Positions 2,951 through 55,589 of a stretch of DNA of 64,000 bases are shown here, in pieces. Position numbers and translations under genes: made by a program. The stretch is from NCBI GenBank assembly GCA_947305255.1, contig CAMZDE010000001.1, positions 8,305 to 72,304 of the forward strand. The letters run 5' to 3'. Position 1 is the first letter of the stretch. Each line of letters begins with the position of its first letter. This stretch comes from an uncultured Alphaproteobacteria bacterium. Its GTDB lineage: Bacteria > Pseudomonadota > Alphaproteobacteria > Rs-D84. The notes beneath the pieces are model-generated. The model had not been told where the DNA came from and did not search any database. It saw only the letters and a program-made list of their open reading frames with translations.

Positions 2951-4063
2951 TTACATACGCATTGGCATCAACACAAACAACGCGTCTGTATCTTTGTCCG
3001 TAGATTTGATAATTGTTGGTGATAACGGTTCTTGCATTTCCATTTGGAATTTGTCACCTTCAACCTGCCCCGCCACATCCAGCAAGAATTTCACGTTGAA
3101 ATTAATAGCAAATGTTGCATCACCATTGTATTCAATATCTAATTCTTGGGTTGCGGTTCCGGCATCTGGACTGGACGCGTTAACAACCAATTTGTTCATA
3201 GAAAACGACAATTGAACCGATTTAGTCTTATCAACGCTGGCCACCGAAACCAAATCAACCGCATTGACGAATTTCTTTCTATCCAATATGGCAATTTTAT
3301 CGTTGCCTTTTGGAATAACGACGCGATAGTTTGGATATTGCGCATCAACCAATTTGCTGGTCAATGTGGCGGCGCCAACTGTAAAGCGCGCCTTGGTATC
3401 CGATAATTCAATTGTCACGTCGTCAACGTTGGCATCTTCCAACAATTTTGATAATTCACCAATCACGCGACGCGGTATAATCACAGACGGCATACCTTCG
3501 GTTCCAGCCGGCGCCTTAATCGCACACAACGCCATACGTTGCGCATCGGTTGCAACCGCAGTCAATTTGCCAGTATCTTCGGAAATATGGAAATAGATAC
3601 CGCCCAAATGATAACGCACATCATCTGTTGGAATCGCAAATTTAGTCTGGTTAATCAAATGTGCCAAATCTCCCGTTGTCATTTGGAATTTAGTACTTAA
3701 ATTACCACCCGCCATAACTGGGAAATTTTCCGCCGGCAATGTTGGCAAATGGAAAACCGCACTGCCACTGGAAACAACCAATTGATCGCCCGATTGTTTG
3801 AAATTGATTTCTGCATCGTCTGGCAATTTACGAACAATATCATACAACAATTGTACCGGCACAGTCGTTTTACCCGACAGAGTAATATCAGCGGCAACAT
3901 GTTCCACCAATTCTAAATCAACATTTGTCGCAGACAAAACCAAATCGTCTGCCACTTCTATCTTTACATTAACCAAAATCGGCAAAGTCGCACGTTTTTC
4001 AACAATCGACTGCATATGCCCCAGCGCACGTATTAAAACCTGACGAAACACTGAAAATTCCAT
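2951..4063 (-). CDS. dnaN: DNA polymerase III beta subunit (sliding clamp)
   Basis: MEFSVFRQVLIRALGHMQSIVEKRATLPIL is a typical DnaN N-terminus, ~370 aa. ATG at 4063 with AGGAGA RBS. The upstream in-frame extension of the ORF track is not supported. Confidence 0.9.
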   Translation of the reverse strand: MEFSVFRQVLIRALGHMQSIVEKRATLPILVNVKIEVADDLVLSATNVDLELVEHVAADITLSGKTTVPVQLLYDIVRKLPDDAEINFKQSGDQLVVSSGSAVFHLPTLPAENFPVMAGGNLSTKFQMTTGDLAHLINQTKFAIPTDDVRYHLGGIYFHISEDTGKLTAVATDAQRMALCAIKAPAGTEGMPSVIIPRRVIGELSKLLEDANVDDVTIELSDTKARFTVGAATLTSKLVDAQYPNYRVVIPKGNDKIAILDRKKFVNAVDLVSVASVDKTKSVQLSFSMNKLVVNASSPDAGTATQELDIEYNGDATFAINFNVKFLLDVAGQVEGDKFQMEMQEPLSPTIIKSTDKDTDALFVLMPMRM

Positions 4064-4163
4064 GACATTTCTCCTGTTTATCTTTTTGTTTTTCTTTTTT
4101 CCTATGCCCACTTTACCAAAAAACACCGATTCGGTGCAAGTGTAAATAGTACCAATTAAAATT

Positions 4164-6293: not shown

Positions 6294-7265
6294 TTATGGT
6301 AATTGAAATTCTAAAAATTTCAACACCGATTGCATAAATTCAGGAACCGTCGCAGTCAACGTCATCGTCTTACGTGTAGATGGATGAACAAAAGTAATCT
6401 TGTAAGCAAATAAAAACAAATTTCTGGATTTTAATAACGAATTCAATGCACCCATATCTTTACCGCGCGTGACACCATACAAATCATCACCTACAATTGG
6501 CGCACCCAAAGTGTACGCACTATGTAATCTTAATTGATGTGTCCGACCCGTCTTAGGCGAAAACCACACCCACGACAACAAACCATGTGCCGTCCCCAAT
6601 AAACGATATTCAGTAACCGCACGTTGTGCATGAACACCGTCTGGAACATTTGATAAATCTTCATATACTGCACCTTTGGCAATATGGTTTTCTATGGTCC
6701 CTTTTTGTTTAGACAAAGTCCCATGCAAAAGCGCAACATATTCTTTGTGTGCAGTTTTATTTTGAAATTGTTTTGATAATTCTTGGGCCGCATGTTGATT
6801 TTTTGCAACAATTAAAATACCACTGGTTTCTTTGTCAATTCGATGCACCAACGATATTTTATCATACGGGAACAAAGCAGCCGCCATTTTATCAATAGAT
6901 TTTTTTATACCTGTTCCACCCTGCACCGCCAATCCGGCCGGTTTATTAAACACAACAACATCATTATCACTATGGATAATACATTTGCGTAAATCTTCCA
7001 AATCAGACAATGAAAATTGTTCACCACCTTCACTTTTTTTCTGGACAGTTTTATACGAATTCAGCGTCGGCGGTACGCGCACCACATCTCCGTTTCGCAA
7101 AATTTCCATTCCGCGCACACGCGACGAATTCACACGAATTTGCCCACCACGACAAAGTTTATAAAAATCCCCTTGGGGCAGCCCAGGAAAAACACGAAGG
7201 AACCAGCGCAAAAGTCTGGTTCCTTCATCAACTTGTGAAATTGTGATAAATTCAGCCAATTTCAA
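6294..7265 (-). CDS. RluA-family 23S rRNA pseudouridine synthase (RluC/RluD-like) with S4 domain
   Basis: HRIDKETSGILIVAKN catalytic motif plus N-terminal S4-like RNA-binding region. Confidence 0.8.
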   Translation of the reverse strand: MKLAEFITISQVDEGTRLLRWFLRVFPGLPQGDFYKLCRGGQIRVNSSRVRGMEILRNGDVVRVPPTLNSYKTVQKKSEGGEQFSLSDLEDLRKCIIHSDNDVVVFNKPAGLAVQGGTGIKKSIDKMAAALFPYDKISLVHRIDKETSGILIVAKNQHAAQELSKQFQNKTAHKEYVALLHGTLSKQKGTIENHIAKGAVYEDLSNVPDGVHAQRAVTEYRLLGTAHGLLSWVWFSPKTGRTHQLRLHSAYTLGAPIVGDDLYGVTRGKDMGALNSLLKSRNLFLFAYKITFVHPSTRKTMTLTATVPEFMQSVLKFLEFQLP

Positions 7266-7300
7266 CCCATAACAGCAATTATATAATCACTGTCTTGCTA

Positions 7301-7813
7301 TTAATTGCCGCTTGTTGGGATAGTGACAGCTTCACCATCACGGCCGAACCAAATCTGCAACTTGGAATTATCATTAGTTCCGGCCACACATTTAGCCTGA
7401 CCACCATTGGCCCATGTTCTGCCTTGCAACCCAGCACAAGTTGTCGCATCACCAGTTTCAAAGGAAATAGTAAATCTATCGCCCGCAGTAGATTCTGTTG
7501 CAGAGGCAACTTCATATACAGAACCGCCGTATGGCGCTTTCACTTGATCGAAGCCCAAAACTTTCAACACATTTGCAGAAGTAACACCGCTGAAGTTATC
7601 AGTGTTGTTGTACAACAAACGGATACCAGCCGCCAAAGCAGCGATATCGTCGTCAGCACGGCTCAATTTTTGGGAACGCATAGCAGATGTAATCAATACA
7701 AACGCCGCAGCAGTGATTAAACCCATAACCGCCAACACACCAACCATTTCAATCATAGAACGGCCGGATTCGTGTTTTTTAGTTACTCTTCTTGTTTGTT
7801 TTTTTTGTTTCAT
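7301..7813 (-). CDS. prepilin-type N-terminal cleavage/methylation domain protein (type IV pilin-like), paralog 1
   Basis: ESGRSMIEMVGVLAVMGLITAAAFVL has Gly, then Glu at +5, then a hydrophobic helix. C-terminal Cys pair. Confidence 0.7.
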   Translation of the reverse strand: MKQKKQTRRVTKKHESGRSMIEMVGVLAVMGLITAAAFVLITSAMRSQKLSRADDDIAALAAGIRLLYNNTDNFSGVTSANVLKVLGFDQVKAPYGGSVYEVASATESTAGDRFTISFETGDATTCAGLQGRTWANGGQAKCVAGTNDNSKLQIWFGRDGEAVTIPTSGN

Positions 7814-7897
7814 TTTTTTCTCCTGTTGTTTTCACATGGCACCTTTATTGTATCATAAAATACAAAACCTGTCAAACCGAAATTCGGTTTTTTTTCA

Positions 7898-8458
7898 TTA
7901 AATCAAATTTTCTGTCTTTTTGTAAAAAATTCCAAAACTATCTTCGATGCGGTTCAACCCAGTATTTGGATTTATCGCCACCGCAACGCCGATATTTTGT
8001 TGTGATTTAACGAATTGAGAATTTGCAAAAGTTTGCCCACATCCCGCACCAACCGAACCGCGGAAAAAGTTATCATTCAATTTTTTGCAATATCTTGAAT
8101 CCAGATTAGCAATATAAATACTGAACACATCCGGATAATCTGGGTCATACACAACACTATAATAACTGCCTTTGCCAAAAGGTGTTGTTGTTGCGACACG
8201 TAATTTTTCTAAGAAATTTTTTCCTGCTTCGATATTTGTAATACCGTCCAACGTTGAAAAATCTCTATATTTCAAAGACAAAGCCCGCACAGTTAATGCG
8301 ATATCCGCGACATCATCTTGGGTTTGTTTTATTTTTTTATTTGTTTGGATTATCGACACTATCCACAACACAAATGCCGCCACAGCACCAACAATAGCCA
8401 AGATAATCGCAGCTTCTAACATTGCAATCCCAGATTCACGATTATTTTGTTTTTTCAT
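7898..8458 (-). CDS. prepilin-type protein, divergent paralog 2 (possible minor pilin)
   Basis: ESGIAMLEAAIILAIVGAVAAFVLWIV has Gly then Glu at +5. C-terminal region unrelated to the neighbours. Contains a Cys pair. Confidence 0.6.
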   Translation of the reverse strand: MKKQNNRESGIAMLEAAIILAIVGAVAAFVLWIVSIIQTNKKIKQTQDDVADIALTVRALSLKYRDFSTLDGITNIEAGKNFLEKLRVATTTPFGKGSYYSVVYDPDYPDVFSIYIANLDSRYCKKLNDNFFRGSVGAGCGQTFANSQFVKSQQNIGVAVAINPNTGLNRIEDSFGIFYKKTENLI

Positions 8459-8486
8459 ATATTCCCCCCATTAAAAAAATAAATTT

Positions 8487-8978
8487 TTATTTAGAGTATG
8501 TAATTTTCAGCACTTTTTTATTACTGATTGTTGAACAAGTTGCGGTTCCGTCAGAATATGTCCGCACGGCCATTGCTTCGCATTCTTCGGCTTCAATTCC
8601 AATCAACCATACAATAAGTTTTCCTCTAGCTGTACTTACCGCGTAATACGAATCATCCCCCAAAGGTGTCGCCCCGTCAGTTTTTAACAACATTCTTGCC
8701 AGATCATACGCTGTCACATAATCATTGGCCACCTTTTTTTCGGGCACCGAACTATCGTCAAACCAGCGCAAAACGCTGTATCCCCCCTGTGCCGCAGTAA
8801 GCGCACTAACACCTTGAACCAATGTACTTATTTCATCGGCGGCGCGATTGCGTTTTTGCGACGCCATACCACTCTTAACCAAAACAAAAGCGCCCGCGGT
8901 CAACAATCCTGCAACAGCCAACACCCCAACCATTTCTATCATCGAACGACCGGATTGACGATTATTGTGTTTTTTCAT
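8487..8978 (-). CDS. type IV pilin-like protein, paralog 3
   Basis: QSGRSMIEMVGVLAVAGLLTAGAFVLVKSGMASQKRNRAADEISTL N-terminus. C-terminal ECEAMAVRTYSDGTATC disulfide loop. Confidence 0.75.
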   Translation of the reverse strand: MKKHNNRQSGRSMIEMVGVLAVAGLLTAGAFVLVKSGMASQKRNRAADEISTLVQGVSALTAAQGGYSVLRWFDDSSVPEKKVANDYVTAYDLARMLLKTDGATPLGDDSYYAVSTARGKLIVWLIGIEAEECEAMAVRTYSDGTATCSTISNKKVLKITYSK

Positions 8979-9006
8979 ACATTCCCCCGTATAAAAACAT
9001 TACTTT

Positions 9007-9519
9007 TTATTTAGAATATGTAATTTTCAGAACTTTTTTGTTACTGATTGTTGAACACGTTGCGGTTCCATCAGAATATGTCCGCACCGCCATTGCTTCG
9101 CATTCTTCGGATTCAATCCCCACCAACCAGATAGCAAAACCATTGCCTTCCCCGCTTATTGCGTAATACGACCCATCCCCCAAAGGCGTCGTTGCTTCGG
9201 TCTTTAACAATACTCTTGCCATTTCATACGGCGTCATATAGTCAGATTCTCCACCGACGGTCTTTGTCGGCACCCCACTATTACTTATCCACGGCAAGAA
9301 ACCAAAATATCCGGTTGTCGCAAGATGTGCCGCAGCAAACGAACGCACTCCTTGGGCCAATGTACTTATTTCATCGGCGGCGCGATTGCGTTTTTGCGAT
9401 GCCATACCACTTTTAACCAAAACAAAAGCACCCGCGGTCAACAACCCTGCAACAGCCAACACGCCGACCATTTCTATCATTGAACGACCAGATTCCTGCT
9501 TCCTTAAAAATTTAAACAT
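9007..9519 (-). CDS. type IV pilin-like protein, paralog 4 (mosaic with paralog 3)
   Basis: N-terminal 44 aa and C-terminal 32 aa are identical to paralog 3. The central region differs. Confidence 0.75.
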   Translation of the reverse strand: MFKFLRKQESGRSMIEMVGVLAVAGLLTAGAFVLVKSGMASQKRNRAADEISTLAQGVRSFAAAHLATTGYFGFLPWISNSGVPTKTVGGESDYMTPYEMARVLLKTEATTPLGDGSYYAISGEGNGFAIWLVGIESEECEAMAVRTYSDGTATCSTISNKKVLKITYSK

Positions 9520-9542
9520 ATCGTATTCCCTTTGTTAAAAAA

Positions 9543-10064
9543 TTATTTACCAAAATAGAACCACGCGGTCCCTTGAACACAGGATGCATCCGCGGCGACA
9601 CCGTGCCACGCCTCTAATGCCAACAATTTGCAATCTTCTTCGTCCAGATTCGCCAATCCCACCCTGAAATAAACAGATGTGCCATCATTTTGCACCCCGA
9701 AATATTCATACCAACTGGCATTATGTGTTGCATCGGATTGCGTAATAACGTAATATGTATCTTCACCCATAGGTGTCACACCATTTGTTTTCAACAAAGC
9801 CTTTGCCATATTATGACCACCTTTGCCACGACCTATTTCGTTTGCCCCCGGCAAAGTAGTAAATTTGCTGCCTTCGGCGGTCAAAGTACGCACAGATTGA
9901 GCCAACGTATTCATTTCATCCATTGCACGACGGCGTTTTTGTGATGACATACCACTTTGAATCAAAACGAACGCGCCCGCGGTCAACAAGCCCGCAACAG
10001 CCAACACGCCGACCATTTCAATCATCGAACGGCCCGCTTCTACTTTTTTATTACAACGTTTCAT
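9543..10064 (-). CDS. type IV pilin-like protein, paralog 5
   Basis: EAGRSMIEMVGVLAVAGLLTAGAFVLIQSGMSSQKRRRA N-terminus. C-terminal CKLLALEAWHGVAADASC loop. Confidence 0.75.
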   Translation of the reverse strand: MKRCNKKVEAGRSMIEMVGVLAVAGLLTAGAFVLIQSGMSSQKRRRAMDEMNTLAQSVRTLTAEGSKFTTLPGANEIGRGKGGHNMAKALLKTNGVTPMGEDTYYVITQSDATHNASWYEYFGVQNDGTSVYFRVGLANLDEEDCKLLALEAWHGVAADASCVQGTAWFYFGK

Positions 10065-10083
10065 TCTTATACCTCTTGTTTAA

Positions 10084-10557
10084 TTATTTTCCAAAATACA
10101 CGGATAAATTTCCACCGTCACATGATGTATCTTGGGCATCGGCCCACGTCTGAACCGACAACAAATAGCAATCTTCAGATTCCAGATTAATCATACCAAT
10201 TCTGAATCTATCTAAGGTGTCACCTTGGGTAACCACGTAATACGTATTATCACCAAAAGGTGTTGTTCCATTCGTTTTCAATAACGCTCGGGCTAATTTA
10301 GGCCCCTGCCCATTTGTAGCTATCGCACTAAGCGACGGCAAATTACCAAAATTTTCAGCCTCTGCAGTCAACATACGAACAGATTGAGCCAGTGTATTAA
10401 TTTCATCAGTGGCGCGACGACGTTTTTGCGATGACATTCCGCTTCGAATTAAAACGAACGCCCCCGCAGTCAACAATCCAGTAATTGCCAACACGCCGAC
10501 CATCTCTATCATTGAACGTCCTGATTGACTATTTGAATATCCTTTTTTCCATAACAT
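10084..10557 (-). CDS. type IV pilin-like protein, paralog 6
   Basis: QSGRSMIEMVGVLAITGLLTAGAFVLIRSGMSSQKRRRA N-terminus. C-terminal CYLLSVQTWADAQDTSC loop. Confidence 0.75.
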   Translation of the reverse strand: MLWKKGYSNSQSGRSMIEMVGVLAITGLLTAGAFVLIRSGMSSQKRRRATDEINTLAQSVRMLTAEAENFGNLPSLSAIATNGQGPKLARALLKTNGTTPFGDNTYYVVTQGDTLDRFRIGMINLESEDCYLLSVQTWADAQDTSCDGGNLSVYFGK

Positions 10558-10581
10558 TTTTTACCTTTTCTATCCTTTATT

Positions 10582-11052
10582 TTACATACCAAATCTCAAA
10601 TATACCGCCCCATCACTATTACATGACGCACCCCATACTTCAGGCCATGTCTGGGTCGCCAAAACCATGCAATCATCGTCATCTAAACCGCGAATAAACA
10701 ATTCGAAATAATCCTTTTCACCAACGCCCTTGATACTATATTTCGTATCCGGCCCAAAAGGTGTTGTCGTATTCAAATATAGTCCATCTATCAACTTTGT
10801 TCCTTCGGCTTCATCAGTTGGCAAATCTGCAAATCCATCAGGATATAAACCACGAATATTTTCAACAATCGCCATAACTTCATCAAACGTGCGCGCACGT
10901 TTTTGGGATGTTGCGCCACTACGCACCAAGACCATGGCCCCCGCAGTAATCAAACTCATTACCGCCAACACGCCGATAATTTCGACCATTGAACGTCCTG
11001 AATCCTCATATTTATATTGTTTGTTTGACATTATTTTTCTCTTACCTTTCAA
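10582..11052 (-). CDS. type IV pilin-like protein, paralog 7
   Basis: DSGRSMVEIIGVLAVMSLITAGAMVLVRSGATSQKRAR N-terminus. C-terminal CMVLATQTWPEVWGASC loop. Confidence 0.7.
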   Translation of the reverse strand: MKGKRKIMSNKQYKYEDSGRSMVEIIGVLAVMSLITAGAMVLVRSGATSQKRARTFDEVMAIVENIRGLYPDGFADLPTDEAEGTKLIDGLYLNTTTPFGPDTKYSIKGVGEKDYFELFIRGLDDDDCMVLATQTWPEVWGASCNSDGAVYLRFGM

Positions 11053-11060
11053 TATTTTTC

Positions 11061-11519
11061 TTATTTGGTATATGCAACGTTCACAAAACCAGTACCATTA
11101 CAATTATATTTTACAGAATTTTTAACCGCCCCAGGCCAAGATTTTTTGGCCAACACGATACAATCACGATCTGGCACATGAGTAATACTGACACGGAAAG
11201 TCTGAAAACTTTCATCTGTTTTGTCCACGGTCACCGCATATTTAGACCCTGAATACGGCCCATTATCATCAATTGCCATTGCCGCCAACACATCGTCACC
11301 ACTGGTCCAATCTTTCAAATTATCGTAATCTGCGAATAATGTACGAACACCCGTTACTATCTTAGAAAAATCGTCCATAACAGTATTGCGCCGTTGGGTT
11401 GCCATCGCACTACGTATCATAACAAACGCACCCGCAGACATTATCGTCATTATCGCCAATACGCCGATGATTTCCAACATTGACCGACCAGACTCTGCCT
11501 TTCTTGTGATTTTATACAT
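11061..11519 (-). CDS. type IV pilin-like protein, paralog 8 (first gene of the array)
   Basis: ESGRSMLEIIGVLAIMTIMSAGAFVMIRSAMATQRRN N-terminus. C-terminal CIVLAKKSW...KYNC. ATG at 11519 with AGAGGG RBS. Confidence 0.7.
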   Translation of the reverse strand: MYKITRKAESGRSMLEIIGVLAIMTIMSAGAFVMIRSAMATQRRNTVMDDFSKIVTGVRTLFADYDNLKDWTSGDDVLAAMAIDDNGPYSGSKYAVTVDKTDESFQTFRVSITHVPDRDCIVLAKKSWPGAVKNSVKYNCNGTGFVNVAYTK

Positions 11520-11567
11520 CAATGCAACCCTCTTGATTTTTATGAATTATATTTTATCATAAAATTC

Positions 11568-12995
11568 ATGACTATTCAATTCAAAGATTTAATAAAAAAC
11601 GCCCCGTTATCACCCGGAATTTACAAGATGTATGACAATTCGGGTAATCTGTTATATGTCGGCAAAGCAAAAAATTTATCGAATCGTTTGAATCAATACG
11701 TTGATATTTCAAGACTGGAAAACCATAAACAGGTCATGCGCTCGTTGGTTAAGCGTGTTGAATGGGAAATTACTCAAAACGAATCAGATGCGCTGATATT
11801 AGAACAAAAACTTATCAAAACATTAAAGCCGAAATACAATATCATGCTGACCGACGGAAAAATGTATCCAATGTTGGCATTGACACGACATGAATTTCCA
11901 CGGCTATTAAAATTTCGCGGTAAAATAACCCAACGAACAGATGTATATGGCCCATACCCGTCGGTTCATGCATTAAACGACACAATCAAAACCATACAAC
12001 GCGTATGCCAATTACGCACATGCAATGATACATTTATGCGCAACAGAACACGTCCATGTTTGCTTTATCAAATTGGCCGATGCAGCGCACCATGTTGTAT
12101 TCCACAAACAAATTACGATAAAAACGTTCAATTGGCACGTCGTATTTTAACAGGGGATAGCGAACCTATTATCTCTGACCTGACAAAAAAAATGAAAGAT
12201 TTTGCCGAAAACCAAGACTATGAAAATGCGGCAATTATGCGTGATAAAATTACGGCATTAACAAATACAACAAATCGCGGTATACGCCAGAAATCAACGT
12301 ATAACCAAAATTTTGATTGGGATAAACGTGTATCAGAATTGGAAAATTGGTTGGGCATAAAAATAAACTGTGCGGGGGTTTTTGATAACTCTCACCTGTT
12401 TGGTAAAAACCCAGTCGGCGCAATGATAGCATTTGGCCACGACGGTTTTATAAAATCATCATATCGACATTTCAAATTACGTGACATGCGACGTGCCGGC
12501 AACGATATCGCGATGATGGAAGAATTTGTTCAACGTGCCATAGACGATAATCCAAATCTCGATTTAATTATCGTTGACGGGGGGCCTGCCCAATGGAATA
12601 TCGCGCAAAAAGTTGCAAACGGAAAAATCCCTGTATTGGGCGTTACCAAAGGTGTTGTCAGAAATGGTGACGAACATTTTATTATGTTGGACGGTTCTGT
12701 GAATACATCTCTTGCCAAAGACAGTCCATTGTTTTTATTACTGCGTGCTGTCCGTGACGAAGCGCACCGTTTCGTGATTACATATCACCGCACAGTTCGC
12801 GCAAAACAATTGACCGCCAGCTGTATTGATGAAATCGAAGGCATCGGTCCAATTCGTAAAAAACAACTATTGCAACATTATGGTTCGATTCGTGCAATCA
12901 TGGACGCAGATTTAAAATCTTTGTTGCACGTCCCAGGCCTTGGAAAATCCGCTGCGGAAAAAATATATGCATATTTTCATTCCGAAGTGTTATAA
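11568..12995 (+). CDS. uvrC: excinuclease ABC subunit C
   Basis: N-terminal GIY-YIG (GIYKMYDNSGNLLYVGKAKNLSNRLNQY). Cys-rich region, UVR domain and C-terminal HhH (IEGIGPIRKKQLL...GLGKSAAEKI). A compact 475 aa version. Confidence 0.85.
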   Translation: MTIQFKDLIKNAPLSPGIYKMYDNSGNLLYVGKAKNLSNRLNQYVDISRLENHKQVMRSLVKRVEWEITQNESDALILEQKLIKTLKPKYNIMLTDGKMYPMLALTRHEFPRLLKFRGKITQRTDVYGPYPSVHALNDTIKTIQRVCQLRTCNDTFMRNRTRPCLLYQIGRCSAPCCIPQTNYDKNVQLARRILTGDSEPIISDLTKKMKDFAENQDYENAAIMRDKITALTNTTNRGIRQKSTYNQNFDWDKRVSELENWLGIKINCAGVFDNSHLFGKNPVGAMIAFGHDGFIKSSYRHFKLRDMRRAGNDIAMMEEFVQRAIDDNPNLDLIIVDGGPAQWNIAQKVANGKIPVLGVTKGVVRNGDEHFIMLDGSVNTSLAKDSPLFLLLRAVRDEAHRFVITYHRTVRAKQLTASCIDEIEGIGPIRKKQLLQHYGSIRAIMDADLKSLLHVPGLGKSAAEKIYAYFHSEVL

Positions 12996-13701: not shown

Positions 13702-15666
13702 TTACACAAATAAATCCTTAACAAATTGTGCGTGTTCTGTGATAAATTTAAATCTGAACTCTGGTTTTTTACCCATCAAATCATTTACCAAAGTTTTTGT
13801 TTTTTCGGTATCTTCGACACCTTCTTCGGTTTTAGGTGGTAAATCAACGCGAATTAATCGACGTGTTTTCGCAGACATAGTTGTTTCTTTCAATTGGTTC
13901 GGCATCATTTCACCCAAACCTTTGAATCGTGATATTTCAACTTTTCTGTTTTTGTATTTATTCGCCTTTAATTCTTCTAATTCCTCATCAGTATCTACAT
14001 AAATCGATTCGGTTCCACACGTCAATTTATAAAGTGGCGGACAAGACAAATACAAATGTCCCCCATAAATCAATTGTGGCATATATTGATAGAAAAACGC
14101 CATCAACAGCGACGCAATATGGCTGCCGTCAACGTCAGCATCGGTCATGATAATAATTTTTTCATAGCGCAATTTTGCATCGTCCCAATCTTTCGCAGTT
14201 CCTGCACCGATAATATCAATCAAATCATTCAATTCACGATTTGCACTGAATTTTTCATCAGAATTAGACAACACATTCAAAACCTTACCGCGCAACGGCA
14301 TAATCGCTTGGGTTGCCCTATCCCGTGCCTGCTTTGCTGTTCCACCTGCAGATTCACCCTCAACAATAAACAATTCAGTTCCTTCGACACCGTGTTTTGA
14401 ACAATCGGCTAATTTCGCAGGCATACGAATCCGCTTAGTCGGGGTTTTGCGCGCAACATCTTTGACTTGCTTTGTTTTAATACGCGCATTTGCCAAATTT
14501 ATCACAAATTCCAACAAAGCATTTGCAGTTTTCGGATCCGATGCCAAAAACATTTCCCATGGATCTTTGACTGCATTTTCTGTGTATCGCGCAATTTCAG
14601 GATTCGACAATTTTTCTTTGGTTTGACCTAAAAATTGTGGCGTTCTATAAAACACAGAAACAATCGCCGCAACCGAATCAAAAACATCTTCGCCAATAAT
14701 AGACGCCGCCGCTTTGTTATTTATCTTTTCACCGTACGCCTTTAACCCCTTGGTTATTGCAGCCTTAAATCCAGCCTCATGCGTGCCACCATCAATCGTC
14801 GCAATCGTATTGCAATATGACGCAAAAAATCCATCATCAGACGCCGCCCCATTTTCATCAGTCAACACAGTCAACGCCCATTCCACGCGTCCCATATCAT
14901 CAGGAAAATCAATCGCGCCCGAAAAAATCTTTGGCAGAATACGTGGCTTAGAATCCGTCTTTTCCGCGACAAAATCTGCAACACCGTTCGGATAGTAAAA
15001 CACTTTGTCCGCTTCGATATTCATATCTTCGGTCAATAGTGCCGGATTACAATGCCATTCAATCTTTACCCCACGTGACAGAAACGATTTCGCCCGCGCC
15101 ATACGATAAATCTTAATCGGCTTAAACACAGCGCTTTCGCCAAAGATTTCATCATCTAATGTAAATCTGATTTTTGTTCCATGCGCCTTGGTCGCCGCGC
15201 CGCGCTCAATAGGACTGGTTGTTTTACCGCGTGAAAAAGTCTGGTGCCATTCGTATCCATCGCGCGAAATAACGACATCCATATTTGACGATAGTGCATT
15301 TACAACCGCACTGCCGACCCCGTGCAAACCACCACTGGTTTTATAAACATTGTTATTAAATTTTCCCCCCGAATGCAGGGTTGTCAAAATAACCTCTAAC
15401 GCGGATTTCCCAGGATATTTAGGATGTTCATCAACCGGAATTCCACGTCCGTCATCTGTGATTTCTATGGTTTTTGAATCGATTAAATTTACAACAATTT
15501 TCTTTGCAAAACCGGCGACCGCTTCGTCAATAGAATTATCCATAATTTCGACCGGCAAATGATGCCATGCCTTTTCATCGGTTCCGCCAATATACATCCC
15601 CGGACGCAAACGTACGGGTTCTAAGCCTTCCAGAACTTGAATATCAGACGCATCGTATTTATTCAT
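13702..15666 (-). CDS. parE: DNA topoisomerase IV subunit B
   Basis: GyrB/ParE ATPase and TOPRIM motifs (LEGLEPVRLRPGMYIGGTD, GLHGVGSAVVNALS, EGESAGG). The 654 aa length fits ParE rather than GyrB. Confidence 0.8.
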   Translation of the reverse strand: MNKYDASDIQVLEGLEPVRLRPGMYIGGTDEKAWHHLPVEIMDNSIDEAVAGFAKKIVVNLIDSKTIEITDDGRGIPVDEHPKYPGKSALEVILTTLHSGGKFNNNVYKTSGGLHGVGSAVVNALSSNMDVVISRDGYEWHQTFSRGKTTSPIERGAATKAHGTKIRFTLDDEIFGESAVFKPIKIYRMARAKSFLSRGVKIEWHCNPALLTEDMNIEADKVFYYPNGVADFVAEKTDSKPRILPKIFSGAIDFPDDMGRVEWALTVLTDENGAASDDGFFASYCNTIATIDGGTHEAGFKAAITKGLKAYGEKINNKAAASIIGEDVFDSVAAIVSVFYRTPQFLGQTKEKLSNPEIARYTENAVKDPWEMFLASDPKTANALLEFVINLANARIKTKQVKDVARKTPTKRIRMPAKLADCSKHGVEGTELFIVEGESAGGTAKQARDRATQAIMPLRGKVLNVLSNSDEKFSANRELNDLIDIIGAGTAKDWDDAKLRYEKIIIMTDADVDGSHIASLLMAFFYQYMPQLIYGGHLYLSCPPLYKLTCGTESIYVDTDEELEELKANKYKNRKVEISRFKGLGEMMPNQLKETTMSAKTRRLIRVDLPPKTEEGVEDTEKTKTLVNDLMGKKPEFRFKFITEHAQFVKDLFV

Positions 15667-15834
15667 ATTTTTCCCATTTTAACAACATATTATTATAACA
15701 TTTTTCCATTTTGTGCAAGGGCAAAATCGCCCCGCCCCACCCAAAACACGGGAAAAATATAAGTATCATGCGCACTTGATTTTTATCCAAATATAACTAT
15801 ATACTTCATAAAGTAAAAAATTGGTGAATAAAAA

Positions 15835-16968
15835 ATGAATAAGAATCCTTATGAAGTCCTTGGGGTCTCGCGCGACGCGTCAGACACCGATATCAAAAAG
15901 GCCTATCATAAATTGGTTATGAAATATCACCCTGATAAAAACCCAGGGGACAAAGCGGCCGAAGAAAAGTTTAAGGAAGTTAACAATGCATTTGATATAT
16001 TAAAAGACCCGCAAAAACGCGCGGCATATGACCGATTCGGTGACGCGGCATTTGCCGGCGGCAACGGGGCCAGCGCAGGCGGCGGCTTTAACGGCAATCC
16101 ATTTGGCAACGGCGCATTTCATTTCAATATGGGTGGCGGCGACATGGGCGGAATGGAAGATATTTTACGCGAAGCCATGCGTGGTTTTGGATTTGGTGGC
16201 GGGTTTGGCGACGGCGCGCGCGGGAATCAACAACAACGCGGCCGCGATTTATTGGACGAAGTCGTCATCGATTTAAAAGATGCTTTTTTCGGCACAACAC
16301 ATACTGTAAAATTCACCAGTGCGGTAAAATGCGAAAAATGTAATGGCAACGGCACGGCCGACGGCAAACCTGCCCCAACATGTAAGACATGCGGTGGCAC
16401 AGGATACGTCCACGCACGTCAGGGATTTTTCGCGGTCGAAACACCATGCCCTGATTGTCATGGATTGGGCAAACAGATCGATAAAAAATGCAGTGCCTGT
16501 GACGGCACCGGCACGGTTAATAAACAGCGCACATTGGATGTAAAAATTCCCGCCGGTATTATGGACGGCGCGCGCCTGCGTATGGCCGGCATGGGCGAAG
16601 CGGCCCCGAACGGTGGCCCCGCAGGCGATTTCTATATCGATGTCCATATCCGTCCAAATAAAACATTTGAACGCATCGGTAACGATTTGTTAATGCGACG
16701 CGATATTGATTTTGCAACCCTGACTTTGGGTGGCGAAATAGAAATTGAAACAATCGACGATAAAAAATTGTCAGTAAAAATCCCATCGGGAACTCAGGTT
16801 GGTGAAAAATTGCGTGTCCGCGGACATGGTATGCCAACGGGCCGCGGTGGCTTTGGCGATTTATACATTGAAATCGGAATTGTCATACCCAAAAAATTAA
16901 CCGAAAAACAAAAGAAGGCATTGGCCGAATTCGCCGGCATAAAGAGCGATAAAAAAGGTTGGTTTTAA
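15835..16968 (+). CDS. dnaJ: molecular chaperone DnaJ
   Basis: J-domain with HPD ([10 protein letters not shown]). Gly/Phe-rich linker. Four CxxCxGxG zinc-finger repeats. C-terminal substrate-binding domain. Confidence 0.9.
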
Positions 16969-16998
16969 CACCAACCTTTTTTTAATCCGAATACAATA

Positions 16999-17517
16999 TT
17001 AAAAACCATTCGTCAAAGAGACACTGGTTATATCATCACTGTCCCAAGTTGTATAAACAGCAACCTGTTGCGCAGCGATATAATCTTTCACAGCTTTTAC
17101 AGCCCCACTCAACCCATCTCCCGCAACAAGAAACCGCGAAAGAAGATTAGTCTGCAAATTATCGTTTAAAAATACTTCTCTGACTATATCGTCACCTGCC
17201 ACTGACCCAAGTGCCATATTTTCCATTGCTCTACCTGTTTCGTCATTAATAATCTTTCCCTGTTTATCACTGTCCAATTTATTCACCGCCGCAATTGCGT
17301 CATTGTATGCACCCTTGACATACGCAGTGGTGGCGATATGCGTTTCGTCGGCCGCCGTTGGTGTGATTGTCACATATGGTGCCGGTGCAGTTGCAACAAC
17401 CGCCGTTCCATTTGCCGGCACCGCGGACGGCCCGACCGGCGTCACAGGGTCTGCATTTGCAGCAAACGTCGACGACGCAATCATTGTTAATGTTAATAAT
17501 AGCTGTTTCGTTGTCAT
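16999..17517 (-). CDS. secreted protein of unknown function, HIATTAYVKGAYN/YTTWDDD family, copy A
   Basis: Start MTTKQLLLTLTMIASSTFAANA (signal peptide) with GGAGAG RBS. Shares the conserved core TADETHIATTAYVKGAYNDAIAAVNK and C-terminal YTTWDSDD with the ORFs at 22355-22846 and 52007-52540. Confidence 0.6.
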   Translation of the reverse strand: MTTKQLLLTLTMIASSTFAANADPVTPVGPSAVPANGTAVVATAPAPYVTITPTAADETHIATTAYVKGAYNDAIAAVNKLDSDKQGKIINDETGRAMENMALGSVAGDDIVREVFLNDNLQTNLLSRFLVAGDGLSGAVKAVKDYIAAQQVAVYTTWDSDDITSVSLTNGF

Positions 17518-17723
17518 TGTTTCTCTCCTTTTGTTCGTTTTAACAACAAACAACCACCCGATTAAATGGGTGGTTGGAGGTTCAAGACAATTGTAGTTTA
17601 AATTGTGCCGTTTATTTTACCATATGGTATTATTCACGGGCCCTCCAACCATAAATTAAGGTTGGAGTTTTTACGTCTCTCCTGACGAACTTACATCGGG
17701 CCTTGATACCCCATCGGAAAAAC
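17518..17723 (-). promoter_or_regulatory. conserved structured 5' leader, copy 1, with terminator/antiterminator alternative pairing (candidate riboswitch or attenuator)
   Basis: Read on the minus strand. 5' hairpin UCGGAAAGGG..CCGA. Central stem with conserved GAAUAA and ACAAUUU/AAAUUGU hairpin. CUCCAACC/GGUUGGAG, GGUUGGAGG/CCUCCAACC and CAACCACCC/GGGUGGUUG+UUUGUUGUU pairings are mutually exclusive. Two more copies with compensatory substitutions are at 22847-23107 and 52541-52745. Confidence 0.5.
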
Positions 17724-17729
17724 CCTTTC

Positions 17730-17738
17730 CGACGTAAA
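17730..17738 (-). promoter_or_regulatory. putative extended -10 promoter element TGATAAAAT for the leader and copy A
   Basis: Minus-strand TGATAAAAT lies about 7 nt upstream of the conserved GUCGG leader start. The same nonamer is at the same position in the other two copies (23114-23122, 52752-52760). Confidence 0.35.
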
Positions 17739-17770
17739 TATTTTATCATTTTTCAAAAACTAAAACAAGG

Positions 17771-17800
17771 ACAAAAAAAGTACCGCCCAAACGGGCGGTT
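17771..17800 (-). terminator. intrinsic terminator of dnaA
   Basis: ACCGCCCAAACGGGCGGT hairpin followed on the minus strand by TTTTTTTGTCC. Confidence 0.6.
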
Positions 17801-17805
17801 ATGTT

Positions 17806-19083
17806 TTATTTGCAAACTTTAATTAAATCGGCGATTTCTGCATTCAATATTAAATCCGACGCCTTTTGATTTTCAATTTGTGACAATGCATACACAACCG
17901 TTGCATGATCGCGGCCGCCGCATACGTTGCCAATTTCGGTCAACGATAAATTTGTAACAGATTTTAATACAGCCATCATTATCTGACGCGCACGAACCAA
18001 ACGACGTGTGCGGGAATTACCACAAATTTCATCATATGAAACACACATTTTTTCACACATAGATTTTACCATCATCGTTGGTGTTTTATTTTTATTCAAC
18101 ACATCACCCAACAAACGCGCGGCAACATCCATATCTACGGTTTCACCCATCAATTCAGTATATGTTTTAATTTTGCTGATGATGCCATTCACCAAATGAC
18201 CATCGCCACCAATTTGTTTTGATAATTCATCTGCAACCGTTCCATCAACACCGGCACGATTTAACATAGCGCGACGAACATATGCGTTCGGTGCAACAAC
18301 ATCAACCACCAAACCCGACGCGAACAGCGATTGCATACGTCTATCGAACCCAGTCAACGCGTTCGGTGCAGCGTTCGCAGTCAACACAACCGATTTTCCA
18401 TTTGCGCGCAAATCAGTCAACAACTGTAAAAATTCGTCCATTGTCGCACGTTTGCCGGCCAACGCACAAACATCGTCCAAAATGAACATATCGCAATTGC
18501 GGCAATAATCTTTGAATGAAAATATAGTTTTATCACGCAATGCACGTGCAAAATCAGAAACAAATTGTCCACCCGACATCATAACAACACGTTTGTTTGA
18601 TGTCGCACAAATGCAATTCGCTAACAATGTTTTACCACAACCCGCCGGCCCAGCGATAAACAGTTGTGAAAATGATGCCCCACCAACAGCAATCTTTTTG
18701 CATGCGGCCACCGCGAACATATTATCATCACAGGCAACAAAATCATCAAACGCATTACGTTTTGCCTGAACAATATTTTTTGTTTCTGGGGCGTATGCAC
18801 AAACAACATTATCATTTGCAGAATTCAAATTCACATGTGCCGCCACAGCGATATTTAATTCCAAAGAAAAATCCGCCGCAATGTCTTGGATGATTTTTCC
18901 ATAATTTCTTTTGACATGGTCGGCGGAAAATTGATTGTGCGCAATTAAATTCAAACGATTATCAACAATTTCAAATTGCAGCGGCATAACCCAGGCAGCA
19001 AACCCCGCAGAATCTATCTGTGACGCAATCGCCATTTTGATTGATTCTACATTTACGTTCTGTTTTGTTATTGCTAACTGCAT
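17806..19083 (-). CDS. dnaA: chromosomal replication initiator protein DnaA (compact, 425 aa)
   Basis: AAA+ Walker A GPAGCGKT. Domain IV signature RTRRLVRARQIMMAVLK...IGNVCGGRDHATVVYA. Confidence 0.85.
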   Translation of the reverse strand: MQLAITKQNVNVESIKMAIASQIDSAGFAAWVMPLQFEIVDNRLNLIAHNQFSADHVKRNYGKIIQDIAADFSLELNIAVAAHVNLNSANDNVVCAYAPETKNIVQAKRNAFDDFVACDDNMFAVAACKKIAVGGASFSQLFIAGPAGCGKTLLANCICATSNKRVVMMSGGQFVSDFARALRDKTIFSFKDYCRNCDMFILDDVCALAGKRATMDEFLQLLTDLRANGKSVVLTANAAPNALTGFDRRMQSLFASGLVVDVVAPNAYVRRAMLNRAGVDGTVADELSKQIGGDGHLVNGIISKIKTYTELMGETVDMDVAARLLGDVLNKNKTPTMMVKSMCEKMCVSYDEICGNSRTRRLVRARQIMMAVLKSVTNLSLTEIGNVCGGRDHATVVYALSQIENQKASDLILNAEIADLIKVCK

Positions 19084-19391: not shown

Positions 19392-20402
19392 TCAATTTAA
19401 AACGTAACCACCATCTTGTTTTCTTATCAAACCTTGTAATTCTAACATTACTAAATCCGCCTTGATTTCCGGAACGGTTTTTTTGACAAGGTTTGCCAAT
19501 ACAGATTCAGAGACCGGAATCATTCCTATTTTATCAAGCACATCATTTTCGGCCCCATTATTTTTTTTATGATTTTGTTCTTTTGTGTCTTCAAAAAAAT
19601 CTTTTGATGACATACATAGTGTCGCCAGACCATTTTTTATTAATGAATTTGGCCCCGCGCTTCGCGGATCAGACGGATGCCCTGGTATCGCAAACACTTG
19701 TTTTCCGTAATCCAATGCGAATCGTGCAGTTGACATACTGCCTGAATTTTTGTCTGCTTCACCGATAACCAACAAATCTGCCAACGCCGCAACCCAATGA
19801 TTTCGCTGTATAAAATTACTAGCCACCGGCGTTGTCCCAACAGGCATTTCACTGATTACAACACCCCTATCTAAAATTTCATAATACAGCGATTCGTTTT
19901 CCAACGGCCATATATAATCAACACCACCCGCCAACACCGCCACAGTCTGCGAATCGCCACCCGATTTCAAAGCCCCCATATGCGCGGCCGAATCGGTTCC
20001 CATCGCCATTCCAGATACAACTGCAAAATTATGTTCTGCAAATTCGTATGCCAAATTAGACATAAAATCCATACCCGTTGCAGTCGAATGTCGTGTTCCA
20101 ACCATTGACACCATTTTTTTATTTAACGTGTCCAAATTCCCACGCGCCGAAATAATTGGCGGATGATTTTTAACCGCGCGCAAATTAATGGGATACCGCG
20201 CATCTTCATCAGATATATATGTTATCCCCATATCATTTGCCACATCCATTTCGCGCCGCACAGAATCAATAAAATCATGTCCTAAATTTAACGAATCGAC
20301 CGCCGCGCAAACATCGCCATATTCCGCAATCAATTTGTTGTATTTTACTGGCCCTATCCCCGAAGATCGCAATATCAAAAGTTTTTGTAATAACATATCC
20401 AT
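19392..20402 (-). CDS. dprA: DNA processing protein DprA (Smf)
   Basis: Rossmann-like DprA core with GMAMGTDSAAHMGAL. ATG at 20402 (MDMLLQKL). The ORF track extends to a TTG. Confidence 0.75.
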   Translation of the reverse strand: MDMLLQKLLILRSSGIGPVKYNKLIAEYGDVCAAVDSLNLGHDFIDSVRREMDVANDMGITYISDEDARYPINLRAVKNHPPIISARGNLDTLNKKMVSMVGTRHSTATGMDFMSNLAYEFAEHNFAVVSGMAMGTDSAAHMGALKSGGDSQTVAVLAGGVDYIWPLENESLYYEILDRGVVISEMPVGTTPVASNFIQRNHWVAALADLLVIGEADKNSGSMSTARFALDYGKQVFAIPGHPSDPRSAGPNSLIKNGLATLCMSSKDFFEDTKEQNHKKNNGAENDVLDKIGMIPVSESVLANLVKKTVPEIKADLVMLELQGLIRKQDGGYVLN

Positions 20403-20459
20403 AACAAAAAGATTGTAGAACAAATCTACAATCTTCTTGAAGTAAAAAATTACAAAATC

Positions 20460-23195: not shown

Positions 23196-24824
23196 TTAAT
23201 CCAATGGCGCACCCCAATGTTGTTGGATATTGCGTTCCGCGTCCATCGGGCTGACCAAAACCTGAGGCGTCAAGATAACAACCAAAACTTCACGCGACGC
23301 CTTGGTATCACGCGACCCAGACAACGCCATAAAGTCCGCATCACCCAAACCATAACGTGTATCATTATTGCTCTGCTTTTCAAACCCAGACACAACCAAC
23401 ATCTGGCCAGATTCCATAATGACTTCCTGCATGAACGAACGTTCTTCTACTTCTGGCAATTGTAATGTGAAGCCGTCGTCCCCACCAATAACCTGGGTAT
23501 CCATCTTTAACAATTCACGCACAGACATTTTGAACAACAACAATATTTTGCCGTTTTCTAAAACATTCGGCAACAATTGCATTGAAAATCCAGTTTCTAA
23601 TTCGTCTTGGTCAACCGTACTGGATTCAACCGTCGTGAAATTACGAGATTCCAAACGTTTGATGTATCCTGTGGTCTTGGTATTTGTCACAGGCGCAACA
23701 CGATTATTACGTGTCGTCACACCAACATTTGTCACCAATGAAACCTTGCCCTGCTTTGCCAAAGCCTGAATCAAAGCATTCGACCCCGCCAAACGTGCCA
23801 TAGAACCGTTACGAATCTGGTCTTCGGAATAATATGTTCCTGCGATTCCACCTTCTGCACCAATGCTGGTCACTTCGGCTGCTTTATTAGACAACACCGC
23901 GACATTCATCGTGCTGGCACCTGTTATAGTTGGCGTACTGGGGGTGGCAACGATATTCAAGCCCGACGCAGAATTTACCGCCGCCGCCAAATTCAACCCA
24001 AAAGCAGATTCATTAGACAACGAAACCTGTAACACTTTGACATCTATCGTCACCAATTGCGACAAGCGTTTATTTTGTCTTTCGATATAACTCGCTACAC
24101 GGGTCAATATAGATGGCGCCGCCGTCACAGTGATTGTTCCCAAACTACGTGACACAGTAAATTGTGCGTTTCTTGCACCATTTATAATAGATGTAATCGT
24201 TTGTTCGATTTCGTCCCATTCATTTAATGACGAACGCAATGCGATATTACTGCCGTCATCTGACGATACAGATGAATTATATTCAACATCTGTCCCCAAC
24301 GCATATAAAGTATATGTACGCGTTTCTGTTTCATAGAAAACGATTGATCCGTTTTCATAATACCATAACAAATCTAAATCTGTCGCAATTTGAGACAACA
24401 ACCCAGACAATTTACCGGTATATGCAACGTCCACAGTTCTCTTTAATTTTTCAGCATCAACCTGACTATCTATTTTTACCGGAATCCCAGTAATAGAATT
24501 TATGTCATTTGCCAAAACCTGTAACGTCACAGGCGTATTTAATAAAATAGTCACCCCTGTATCTGTTTCATATTTTGATGGCAAATTGTTTTTATGTTCC
24601 AAAAGTGTTGATTTATTACCCAACCAAACACCTTCTGACATAGATACAGTATCATTACTGGCGACATTTGCCGTTGGGTGTTTTGATTTTTCGAACGCTT
24701 CATACGCATTCACAAAACTCTGGTCCACAGCCGCAGACACCTTGGCCGATTCATGCAACGTACACCCCGCCACAGTCATCATGGCCATCAATCCCACAAA
24801 ACAAACATATAAACGATTTGTCAT
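23196..24824 (-). CDS. secretin-family outer membrane lipoprotein (type IVb pilus BfpB/TcpC-like, or CpaC/PilQ-like)
   Basis: Lipobox MMTVAGCTL. C-terminal secretin domain (VVSGFEKQ...LVVILTPQV). Beta-rich N-domains. 542 aa. Confidence 0.7.
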   Translation of the reverse strand: MTNRLYVCFVGLMAMMTVAGCTLHESAKVSAAVDQSFVNAYEAFEKSKHPTANVASNDTVSMSEGVWLGNKSTLLEHKNNLPSKYETDTGVTILLNTPVTLQVLANDINSITGIPVKIDSQVDAEKLKRTVDVAYTGKLSGLLSQIATDLDLLWYYENGSIVFYETETRTYTLYALGTDVEYNSSVSSDDGSNIALRSSLNEWDEIEQTITSIINGARNAQFTVSRSLGTITVTAAPSILTRVASYIERQNKRLSQLVTIDVKVLQVSLSNESAFGLNLAAAVNSASGLNIVATPSTPTITGASTMNVAVLSNKAAEVTSIGAEGGIAGTYYSEDQIRNGSMARLAGSNALIQALAKQGKVSLVTNVGVTTRNNRVAPVTNTKTTGYIKRLESRNFTTVESSTVDQDELETGFSMQLLPNVLENGKILLLFKMSVRELLKMDTQVIGGDDGFTLQLPEVEERSFMQEVIMESGQMLVVSGFEKQSNNDTRYGLGDADFMALSGSRDTKASREVLVVILTPQVLVSPMDAERNIQQHWGAPLD

Positions 24825-25799: not shown

Positions 25800-25977
25800 A
25801 TTCTTTCCTTTCATCTATTATTATTCAATTATATCAATTTGACCGAATCAGTGCAAGACATAAAACACACATTTTTAATAAAAAAATAAAATTAAAAAAA
25901 CATGCAAGATAAAATCGCACGAATCGATAAAACATGTTATACTAAAACCCGAAAGAATACAAAAAACAGGTAAAAAC

Positions 25978-55505: not shown

Positions 55506-55589
55506 AAAACCACCAACGAACCAAGACAAAAAACATCGGTCAATGCATAAAAAACATCGACCGATATAGATAAAATCATCATATAAAAA

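Follow-up and report, generated by a model that had tools for sequence, protein, structure and literature searches.

The pilE/pilS system of Neisseria has one expressed pilin gene and a set of promoterless, 5'-truncated silent copies, from which variable mini-cassettes are transferred frequently and in one direction, and it includes a sequence able to form a guanine quadruplex (G4). The major pilins of type IVb systems (TcpA of Vibrio cholerae, CofA of enterotoxigenic Escherichia coli (ETEC), BfpA or bundlin of enteropathogenic E. coli (EPEC), and PilS of R64/Salmonella; Pfam families TcpA, Bundlin, and PilS) have a short basic leader ending in Gly, Glu at position +5, and a residue other than Phe at +1. 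Streptococcus sanguinis incorporates both of its major pilins, PilE1 and PilE2, the products of near-identical tandem genes, into heteropolymeric pili, in a ratio of 4:3 (PMC6916266). The subject here is a pair of adjacent genes, g3 and g4, that share the type IVb characters just named and stand third and fourth in an array of eight pilin genes. The array lies on a stretch of 64,000 nt (contig CAMZDE010000001.1 of assembly GCA_947305255.1), called the window below and numbered from its first nucleotide.

According to the original prediction, made from the letters alone, g3 and g4 are a mosaic with identical ends and unrelated middles, the result of recent recombination or gene conversion and suggestive of cassette-like exchange, as in antigenic variation. 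I read the pair instead as ordinary gene-family evolution, not as a programmed antigen-switching cassette. The two genes are, on balance, probably a young tandem duplicate peculiar to their lineage and set in a type IVb-like array, with loops that have diverged and ends that have been kept.

Identical ends and a homologous middle

The N-terminal blocks of g3 and g4 (N-blocks; SGRSMIE...EISTL) are identical at all 45 residues and at 127 of 135 nt, and the C-terminal blocks (C-blocks; EECEAM...KITYSK) at all 33 residues and at 93 of 99 nt. The eight differences in the former and the six in the latter are all synonymous. Identity of this degree is far above chance, and the original prediction was right about it and about the near-identity of the underlying DNA, though it counted 44 and 32 residues, one too few at either end. 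Other pairs of paralogues in the array do not come close: their N-blocks are 77-82% identical in DNA, although 84-91% identical in protein.

The string that had been quoted as a conserved 3' flank corresponds to plus-strand positions 8487-8568 and opens with the reverse complement of the stop codon, and is therefore C-terminal coding sequence. The true 3' flanks, which the prediction passed over, are alike as well. The 28-nt spacer and the leader of the following gene (MKKQNNRE of g2 after g3, MKKHNNRQ of g3 after g4) match at 45 of 55 nt.

The central part of the two proteins (about 85 residues in the original count), said to be unrelated, proves to be homologous. Of 77 aligned residues, 38 are identical (49%), and the DNA is 64-67% identical, as compared to at most 59% between either middle and any other homologue. 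Two indels, one of 4 codons and the other of 2, make up a difference in length of 18 nt. In a sliding window, identity falls stepwise after the N-block (96, 80, 76, 50, and 23%), recovers to 73-90% of nucleotides in an island (YxxARxLLKT..TPLGDxSYYA), drops again to 33-50%, and then rises to 93-96%, so two hypervariable patches bracket a conserved island. The profile contains no sharp junctions of identity between g3 and g4; the decay is gradual. Mapped on the secondary structure of an AlphaFold2 model of g4, the middle comprises the end of alpha-1, the alpha-beta loop, beta-1, and beta-2.

Conserved ends and a variable middle are also found where no exchange between paralogues has taken place. 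Between g4 and P0003, its orthologue in a related species, amino acid identity is 88% in the N-block, 41% in the middle, and 84% in the C-block; between the alleles P0004 and P0006 the corresponding values are 93, 67, and 93%; and the orthologues P0003 and P0005 show the same pattern. The hypervariable patches of g3 and g4 occupy the same positions as those of P0004 and P0006. Because orthologues behave in this way, the mosaic at the protein level is probably due mainly to selection on the predicted fold, the alpha-1 helix and the C-terminal region being kept and the loops varying.

A type IVb-like family

All eight proteins of the array begin with a K/R-rich leader of 8-17 residues ending in Gly, followed across the cleavage site by (R/I)(S/A)M(I/L/V)E with Glu at +5, then by a hydrophobic helix, and they carry two Cys near the C-terminus. 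Position +1 is Arg (Ile in g2). In an alignment of 43 members of the family, the Gly, the Met at +3, and the Glu at +5 are invariant; of the two Cys, the first (position 140 of g4) never varies and the second (position 155) hardly does, and the disulfide is putative. The class III signal peptide of type IV pilins (a basic leader ending in Gly, about 20 hydrophobic residues, Glu at +5) is thus present, as is the combination, typical of type IVb, of a non-Phe residue at +1 with two C-terminal Cys.

Homology to type IVb pilins extends beyond the N-terminal helix. A profile of the 43 members matches TcpA (8uhf, E=4e-11) along its positions 13-128, a span that begins at residue 3, takes in the alpha-beta loop, and ends at the first Cys, and it also matches CofA (3.3e-6), BfpA (7e-4), and PilE1 (8pfb, 1.8e-4). 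In an exhaustive search with the profile, 59 representatives reached E<=1e-30 and 857 reached E<=1e-10. Ten relatives about 200 aa long (E ~1e-18) were sampled, and nine of them score above the Pfam cut-offs for PilS/Bundlin. Single window pilins, compared with Pfam and NCBIfam, gave no match over cut-off, only weak signals of N_methyl (15 bits, against a cut-off of 21.2), PilS, GspG, and GspH. The model of g4 (pLDDT 86.7) has a helix at 12-69, a loop containing a helix at 97-105, four strands, and a helix at 137-145, an order (long N-terminal helix, loop, four strands) that would fit a pilin. Judged from sequence, the family is a divergent branch of the type IVb pilins, and its profile can be used to annotate further members.

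Duplication and its alternatives

A related species, L074, has the same array, likewise between uvrC and rluD, with seven genes as compared to eight in the window. A single gene of L074, P0003, is the counterpart of both g3 (58%) and g4 (64%), and each of the remaining window pilins has one partner in L074, with 61-76% identity, except that g5 matches h5 and h6 equally well. Since one L074 gene matches both members of the pair, and the middles of g3 and g4 are closer to each other than to anything else, the duplication appears to post-date the split from L074.

The architecture of the duplication can be seen in the DNA. A direct repeat takes in the C-block, the spacer, and the leader of the gene that follows (Table 1), and the leader of g3 resembles that of g2. 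The g4 leader (MFKFLRKQE) is unrelated to those of g2 and g3 and resembles the leader of P0003 in L074 (MNLLKMQE). In a relative-rate test on the middle, g3 has 13 unique amino acid changes and g4 has 4 (p=0.03). The unit of duplication would end at the Ser-Gly codons of g2 and g3, with g4 as the parental copy and g3 as the derived copy, faster-evolving in amino acids.

The extent of the repeat and the g2-like leader of g3 point to an unequal crossover at the shared Glu-Ser-Gly codons (GAATCTGG), at the signal-peptide cleavage site, between an ancestral g4-like gene and its downstream neighbour g2. The products would lie in the order g4 (old leader and body), g3 (g2-type spacer and leader, with a copy of the body), and g2, g3 being a hybrid of the 5' end of g2 and the body of g4. 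Since then, no amino acid change would have been accepted in the cleavage motif and alpha-1 helix or in the C-terminal part (the putatively disulfide-bonded helix, beta-3, and beta-4), regions on which processing and the packing of the filament presumably depend. Divergence would have been fast, and mainly in g3, at the end of alpha-1, in the alpha-beta loop, and in the beta-1/beta-2 hairpin, and occasional exchange of short tracts between g3 and g4 would be superimposed, along with patchy recombination between strains. The array would then probably express both subunits, which would assemble through the same interfaces but present different surfaces.

Silent divergence (dS and dN, the synonymous and non-synonymous distances of Nei and Gojobori) bears on whether one event suffices. 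The N-block has dS 0.29 and the C-block dS 0.33, both with dN 0; the middle has dS 0.95 and dN 0.38; and the spacer and leader differ by 18% (raw). Because N-block, C-block, and spacer with leader share a neutral distance of about 0.3, a single event is a simpler explanation than several conversions. Constraint on the protein alone is not sufficient to account for the identity of the DNA, since the N-blocks of g5 and g6, used as a control, are identical at 41 of 45 residues and yet have a dS of 1.15.

A second strain provides a time scale. Among about 15 billion proteins, g3 and g4 are each represented by only two alleles, those of the window haplotype and those of a haplotype L that is identical in three assemblies (L001, L002, and L081). 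An exact look-up of g3 and P0001 returned no contigs, P0002 and P0039 led to strain L, and a 20-mer of the C-block, sought in JGI metagenomes, gave nine loci with chance matches over 20-22 nt only and no further strains. The window strain and strain L differ by 1.47% overall, with a housekeeping dS of 0.052. Comparing the end dS of about 0.3 with this between-strain dS of 0.05, the ends of g3 and g4 are some six times older than the split of the strains, and their common ancestry is therefore not recent in absolute terms. To this extent the claim of recent recombination or conversion fails, though the pair does have the closest ancestry within the array. Nor does the second strain reveal variant junctions: g3 and g4 are intact in both, and each middle stays with its own gene, at 96-98% nucleotide identity.

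Some exchange between the paralogues has nonetheless left a trace, and here the claim of conversion holds. At two silent sites in the C-block, the bases of g3 and g4 are reciprocally swapped between the strains (columns 492 and 510 of the four-sequence alignment read T/G/G/T and T/C/C/T), and columns 462 and 519, which enclose these sites, carry differences between the paralogues that are fixed. With all four gametes represented, the four-gamete rule is broken, and the pattern requires either four parallel mutations or the exchange between g3 and g4 of a tract no longer than 56 nt. By this comparison of four sequences, short-tract exchange between g3 and g4 does occur. The N-blocks of the two genes are 3 differences apart in strain L as compared to 8 in the window strain, and by inspection the variants specific to the window strain have no clear match in any other paralogue.

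The middle of g3 also contains a cluster of strain differences (Table 1), but comparable clusters occur in gyrB, asmA, and dnaN, and the one in g3 reflects general patchy recombination that is not specific to pilins. A search of all paralogues and loci for a donor of the 24-nt cluster gave no clear candidate; in strain L the segment is slightly nearer to g4 (46/56 as compared to 43/56) and has an 8-mer in common with g6. In gyrB itself (13702-15666), the strains differ by 43 synonymous and no non-synonymous changes (dS 0.107, twice the local average), which suggests an imported allele. Strain L also carries about 1.2 kb between dnaN and efp (L001 16040-17244), with an open reading frame (ORF) of 248 aa without a Pfam hit, that is missing from the window strain (about 2913-2938).

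Several observations weigh against a single young duplication within a type IVb-like array. Codons for the same amino acid differ in 14 of 74 cases in the ends and 14 of 36 in the middle (p=0.035), and fourfold sites in 10 of 41 and 10 of 17 (p=0.017), so the middle exceeds the ends in silent divergence by a factor of two to three, and a single age calls for either extra recombination or noise in the alignment. The public data searched hold only two haplotypes, and that of the window comes from a single assembly. Arg is atypical at +1 of a mature pilin, Foldseek found no significant structural match for the g4 model in the PDB, neither an ATPase of the GspE/PilB type nor a platform protein of the GspF/PilC type is present in the 64-kb window, and none of the window ORFs scanned is a prepilin peptidase (peptidase A24).

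The first of these points gives rise to a competing account, which I regard as doubtful though it deserves to be taken seriously. The duplication might be older, about as old as the split from L074, with the N-block and the C-block with its flank homogenised by separate conversions and the middles kept distinct by selection. Besides the contrast in dS between middle and ends, it would explain why fourfold divergence in the middle is the same between g3 and g4 (10/17) as between g4 and its L074 orthologue (10/17). The swapped sites prove that paralogues exchange sequence, and the N-blocks of strain L, at 3 differences, are no more distinct than alleles between strains. Furthermore, the ends are not intrinsically slow, since silent differences between strains number 12/148 codons in the ends and 6/148 in the middle. 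However, at least two conversions of similar age would be needed, because the pairings differ (N-block of g4 with that of g3, but C-block, spacer, and g3 leader after g4 with C-block, spacer, and g2 leader after g3). In the middle, at the amino acid level, the L074 gene (41-43%) is no closer to g4 than g3 is (49%), which speaks against a duplication that preceded the split. Finally, the heterogeneity itself is weak in the window strain: boundary-free permutation tests (runs and maximum chi-square) give p=0.24 and 0.28 there and p=0.024 in strain L, and the orthologues P0003 and P0005 show a similar two-fold contrast (9/67 as compared to 13/52). Support for ends younger than the middle is modest.

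Recombination may conceivably have a larger role than the young duplication assigns to it. In one version, which I consider unlikely, the N- and C-blocks of full-length, co-expressed pilin paralogues serve as recombination anchors, by means of which conversion within the array and exchange between strains keep reshuffling the two surface loops. Were this true, a gut symbiont with a reduced genome would have a pilE/pilS-like means of diversification without silent cassettes, and the swap between g3 and g4, together with the breakpoint described next, would be its first traces. On another reading, still harder to credit, one of the two middles was imported from a divergent strain or species by homologous recombination, the conserved blocks serving as anchors, amounting to mosaicism at the level of the population. 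Two contigs of related strains, L077 (1-2245) and L078 (1-1707), are 95-100% identical through a g7-like gene and the N-block that follows, then drop to 50-75%, suggesting a recombination breakpoint at the end of the N-block, and the differences between strains do cluster in patches. On the other hand, the two contigs are short, come from metagenomes, and might be chimeras formed at repeats, both known haplotypes have the same two middles, and no donor was found in 5.8 billion clusters and 1.84 billion representatives, each middle being nearest to the other copy.

Elsewhere in this pilin family, too, homogenisation or a partial duplication seems to have affected the 5' end alone. Two pairs of pilins from other gut metagenome-assembled genomes (MAGs), L009 283/925 and L006 7109/7753, have N-blocks 96% identical in DNA and diverge thereafter, with 79 and 67% amino acid identity in the middle and 45 and 36% at the C-terminus.

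The cassette exchange of the original prediction, in the form of programmed antigenic or phase variation in which a central segment moves between a donor copy and the site of expression, is very improbable. It is true that conserved blocks surround a variable segment in what are presumably subunits of a surface filament in a host-associated bacterium, and that some exchange between paralogues exists. However, both genes are complete, each with its own ribosome-binding site (RBS), no promoterless or 5'-truncated silent copy lies in 7200-11650, and no inverted repeats flank g3 or g4 (two weak pairs of 21-22 nt, 76-77% complementary, lie elsewhere). Sharp junctions are lacking, as are recombinase genes nearby. 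The two haplotypes show no swapping of variable segments of the pilE/pilS type, only the silent exchange in the C-block, whose tract of 56 nt or less stays within the conserved block and does not cross the middle. Each middle is linked to its own locus in both haplotypes, and the three assemblies of strain L are identical. An invertase switch or shufflon (as with Piv of Moraxella or Rci of R64) was rejected, there being neither a recombinase nearby nor flanking inverted repeats, and so was a diversity-generating retroelement, there being no reverse transcriptase nearby.

That the near-identical blocks were mis-joined or mis-phased in the window MAG is scarcely credible, despite its standing as the one assembly of its haplotype and a strain L contig (L081) that ends inside the repeated N-block, since strain L repeats the pair and its order in independent assemblies from different samples that agree exactly, and since the six variable C-block sites lie within 72 nt, where single short reads should phase them. 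Contig L081 (1847 nt) stops 78 nt past the g4 stop codon, within the N-block of g3, as expected of a short-read assembly broken at a repeat.

Setting and comparison with known systems

The array comprises eight co-directional type IVb-like pilin ORFs in 7301-11522 of the minus strand, each of full length and with a leader, an RBS-like sequence, and a start codon. Coordinates are given in Table 1. Its neighbours are rluD, asmA, uvrC, and pgsA. Since it lies between dnaN (2951-4126) and gyrB with dnaA (13702-19083), a position near the replication origin is probable. Among the genes of the locus, g1 varies most between strains (4.1% of nucleotides, dS 0.16, with 13 differences in the 64 nt of 7499-7562), and it follows a spacer of 84 nt and is preceded by the best promoter-like site (7875-7847). 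It may be a separately transcribed major subunit.

Table 1. Coordinates in the window of the pilin array, its parts compared here, and associated features.
Feature	Position	Strand	Remarks
rluD-like gene	6294-7265		flank of the array on one side
g1	7301-7813	-	ORF list
Candidate promoter TTGACA-17-(TG)TACAAT	7847-7875	-	upstream of g1; consensus scan only, 11/12 matches
g2	7898-8458	-	ORF list
Direct repeat D3	8414-8609, partner 8934-9129		87% identity, spacing 520; C-block, 28-nt spacer, and next leader
g3	8487-8978	-	163 aa, array member 3
C-block of g3	8490-8588	-	33 codons: helix, beta-3, beta-4, both cysteines; g4 counterpart 9010-9108
Swapped silent sites	g3 8538 and 8520, g4 9058 and 9040	-	bases reciprocally exchanged, window strain vs strain L
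Middle of g3	8589-8819	-	77 codons; g4 counterpart 9109-9357, 83 codons
Cluster of strain differences in g3 middle	8667-8690	-	9 in 24 nt; LLKTDGATP vs VLKTNGTTP
N-block of g3	8820-8954	-	cleavage motif and 43 residues of alpha-1 helix; g4 counterpart 9358-9492
g4	9007-9519	-	170 aa, array member 4
g5	9543-10064	-	ORF list
g6	10084-10557	-	ORF list
g7	10582-11052	-	ORF list
g8	11061-11522	-	ORF list
Weaker candidate promoter	11546-11574		upstream of g8; consensus scan only, 10/12 matches
uvrC	11568-12995		flank of the array on the other side
Lipoprotein secretin	23196-24824	-	Pfam Secretin 2.2e-13; lipobox VAGC; downstream of TcpQ-domain gene
TcpQ-domain protein	24858-25814	-	Pfam TcpQ 1.1e-17

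The source organism, an uncultured bacterium of the gut, is a Candidatus Enterousia, and loci related to the array were found in MAGs of this taxon and of other gut Alphaproteobacteria. A 2025 survey of Candidatus Enterousia (order Rs-D84) reports genomes below 1 Mb and, as regards type IV pili, lists genes in another lineage only (PMC12306168).

Beyond the array, the window holds a lipoprotein secretin and a TcpQ-domain protein, the pair of components characteristic of type IVb systems, 14 kb from the pilin genes. An ATPase, a platform protein, or an upstream gene like that of a distant relative, L050, was sought by motif and tblastn in the window and all 81 loci, and only L050 was positive; no ATPase or platform genes lie within 6 kb of the arrays at other loci. 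In L050, the genes of a T2SSE ATPase and a T2SSF platform protein come just before those of three pilins of the Bundlin/PilS type. A homology search with the L050 ATPase gave thousands of close relatives, and among the 120 listed none was linked to the genome of the window.

Between dnaA and the secretin pair is a homologue of DprA (19392-20423, minus strand; DNA_processg_A E=4e-62), which together with the pilus genes hints at natural transformation. At the end of the window lies a coupling protein of type IV secretion systems (T4SS), of the VirD4/TraG type (61222-63480, plus strand; T4SS-DNA_transf E=1e-49). A further ORF of 892 aa (52851-55529, minus strand) has no Pfam match at E<=1e-5.

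The mosaic of g3 and g4 is in itself ordinary, since duplication, conserved interfaces, and fast loops are usual in pilin families, and it reveals no new mechanism of variation. Its value lies in the context, eight unannotated type IVb-like pilin genes with a secretin and a TcpQ-domain gene in a genome of less than 1 Mb, where pili had been reported only for another lineage and a pilin array is now found in Candidatus Enterousia. So many variants of a subunit in so small a genome suggest a way of life centred on uptake of DNA or on attachment, whether to a host or to a partner cell.

With respect to known systems, the array has most in common with those of type IVb. The predicted fold (long alpha-1, loop, four-stranded sheet, two Cys near the C-terminus) would be similar, and a lipoprotein secretin and TcpQ-domain partner are likewise nearby. 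The window proteins differ in being smaller (about 145-177 mature residues), with shorter leaders (8-17 aa) and Arg at +1, and in forming one array of eight similar paralogues, instead of one major and one minor pilin, that is not adjacent to the ATPase and platform genes.

The closest functional analogue of g3 and g4 is the PilE1/PilE2 pair of S. sanguinis, also two adjacent, full-length, similar pilin genes, although that system is type IVa-like and belongs to a monoderm. By this analogy, I offer the hypothesis that g3 and g4 may form a heteropolymer. The pair resembles pilE/pilS of Neisseria in having conserved blocks around variable segments and conversion between copies, but g3 and g4 are complete and adjacent, no silent copies are seen, and the only documented exchange concerns silent sites in a conserved block, over 56 nt or less. 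The comparison that fits best in kind is with the birth-and-death of tandem gene families under partial concerted evolution, where duplication by unequal crossover, asymmetric divergence, and conversion limited to conserved segments are found together and gene number differs between species, here seven as compared to eight; from this concept the locus differs in nothing essential.

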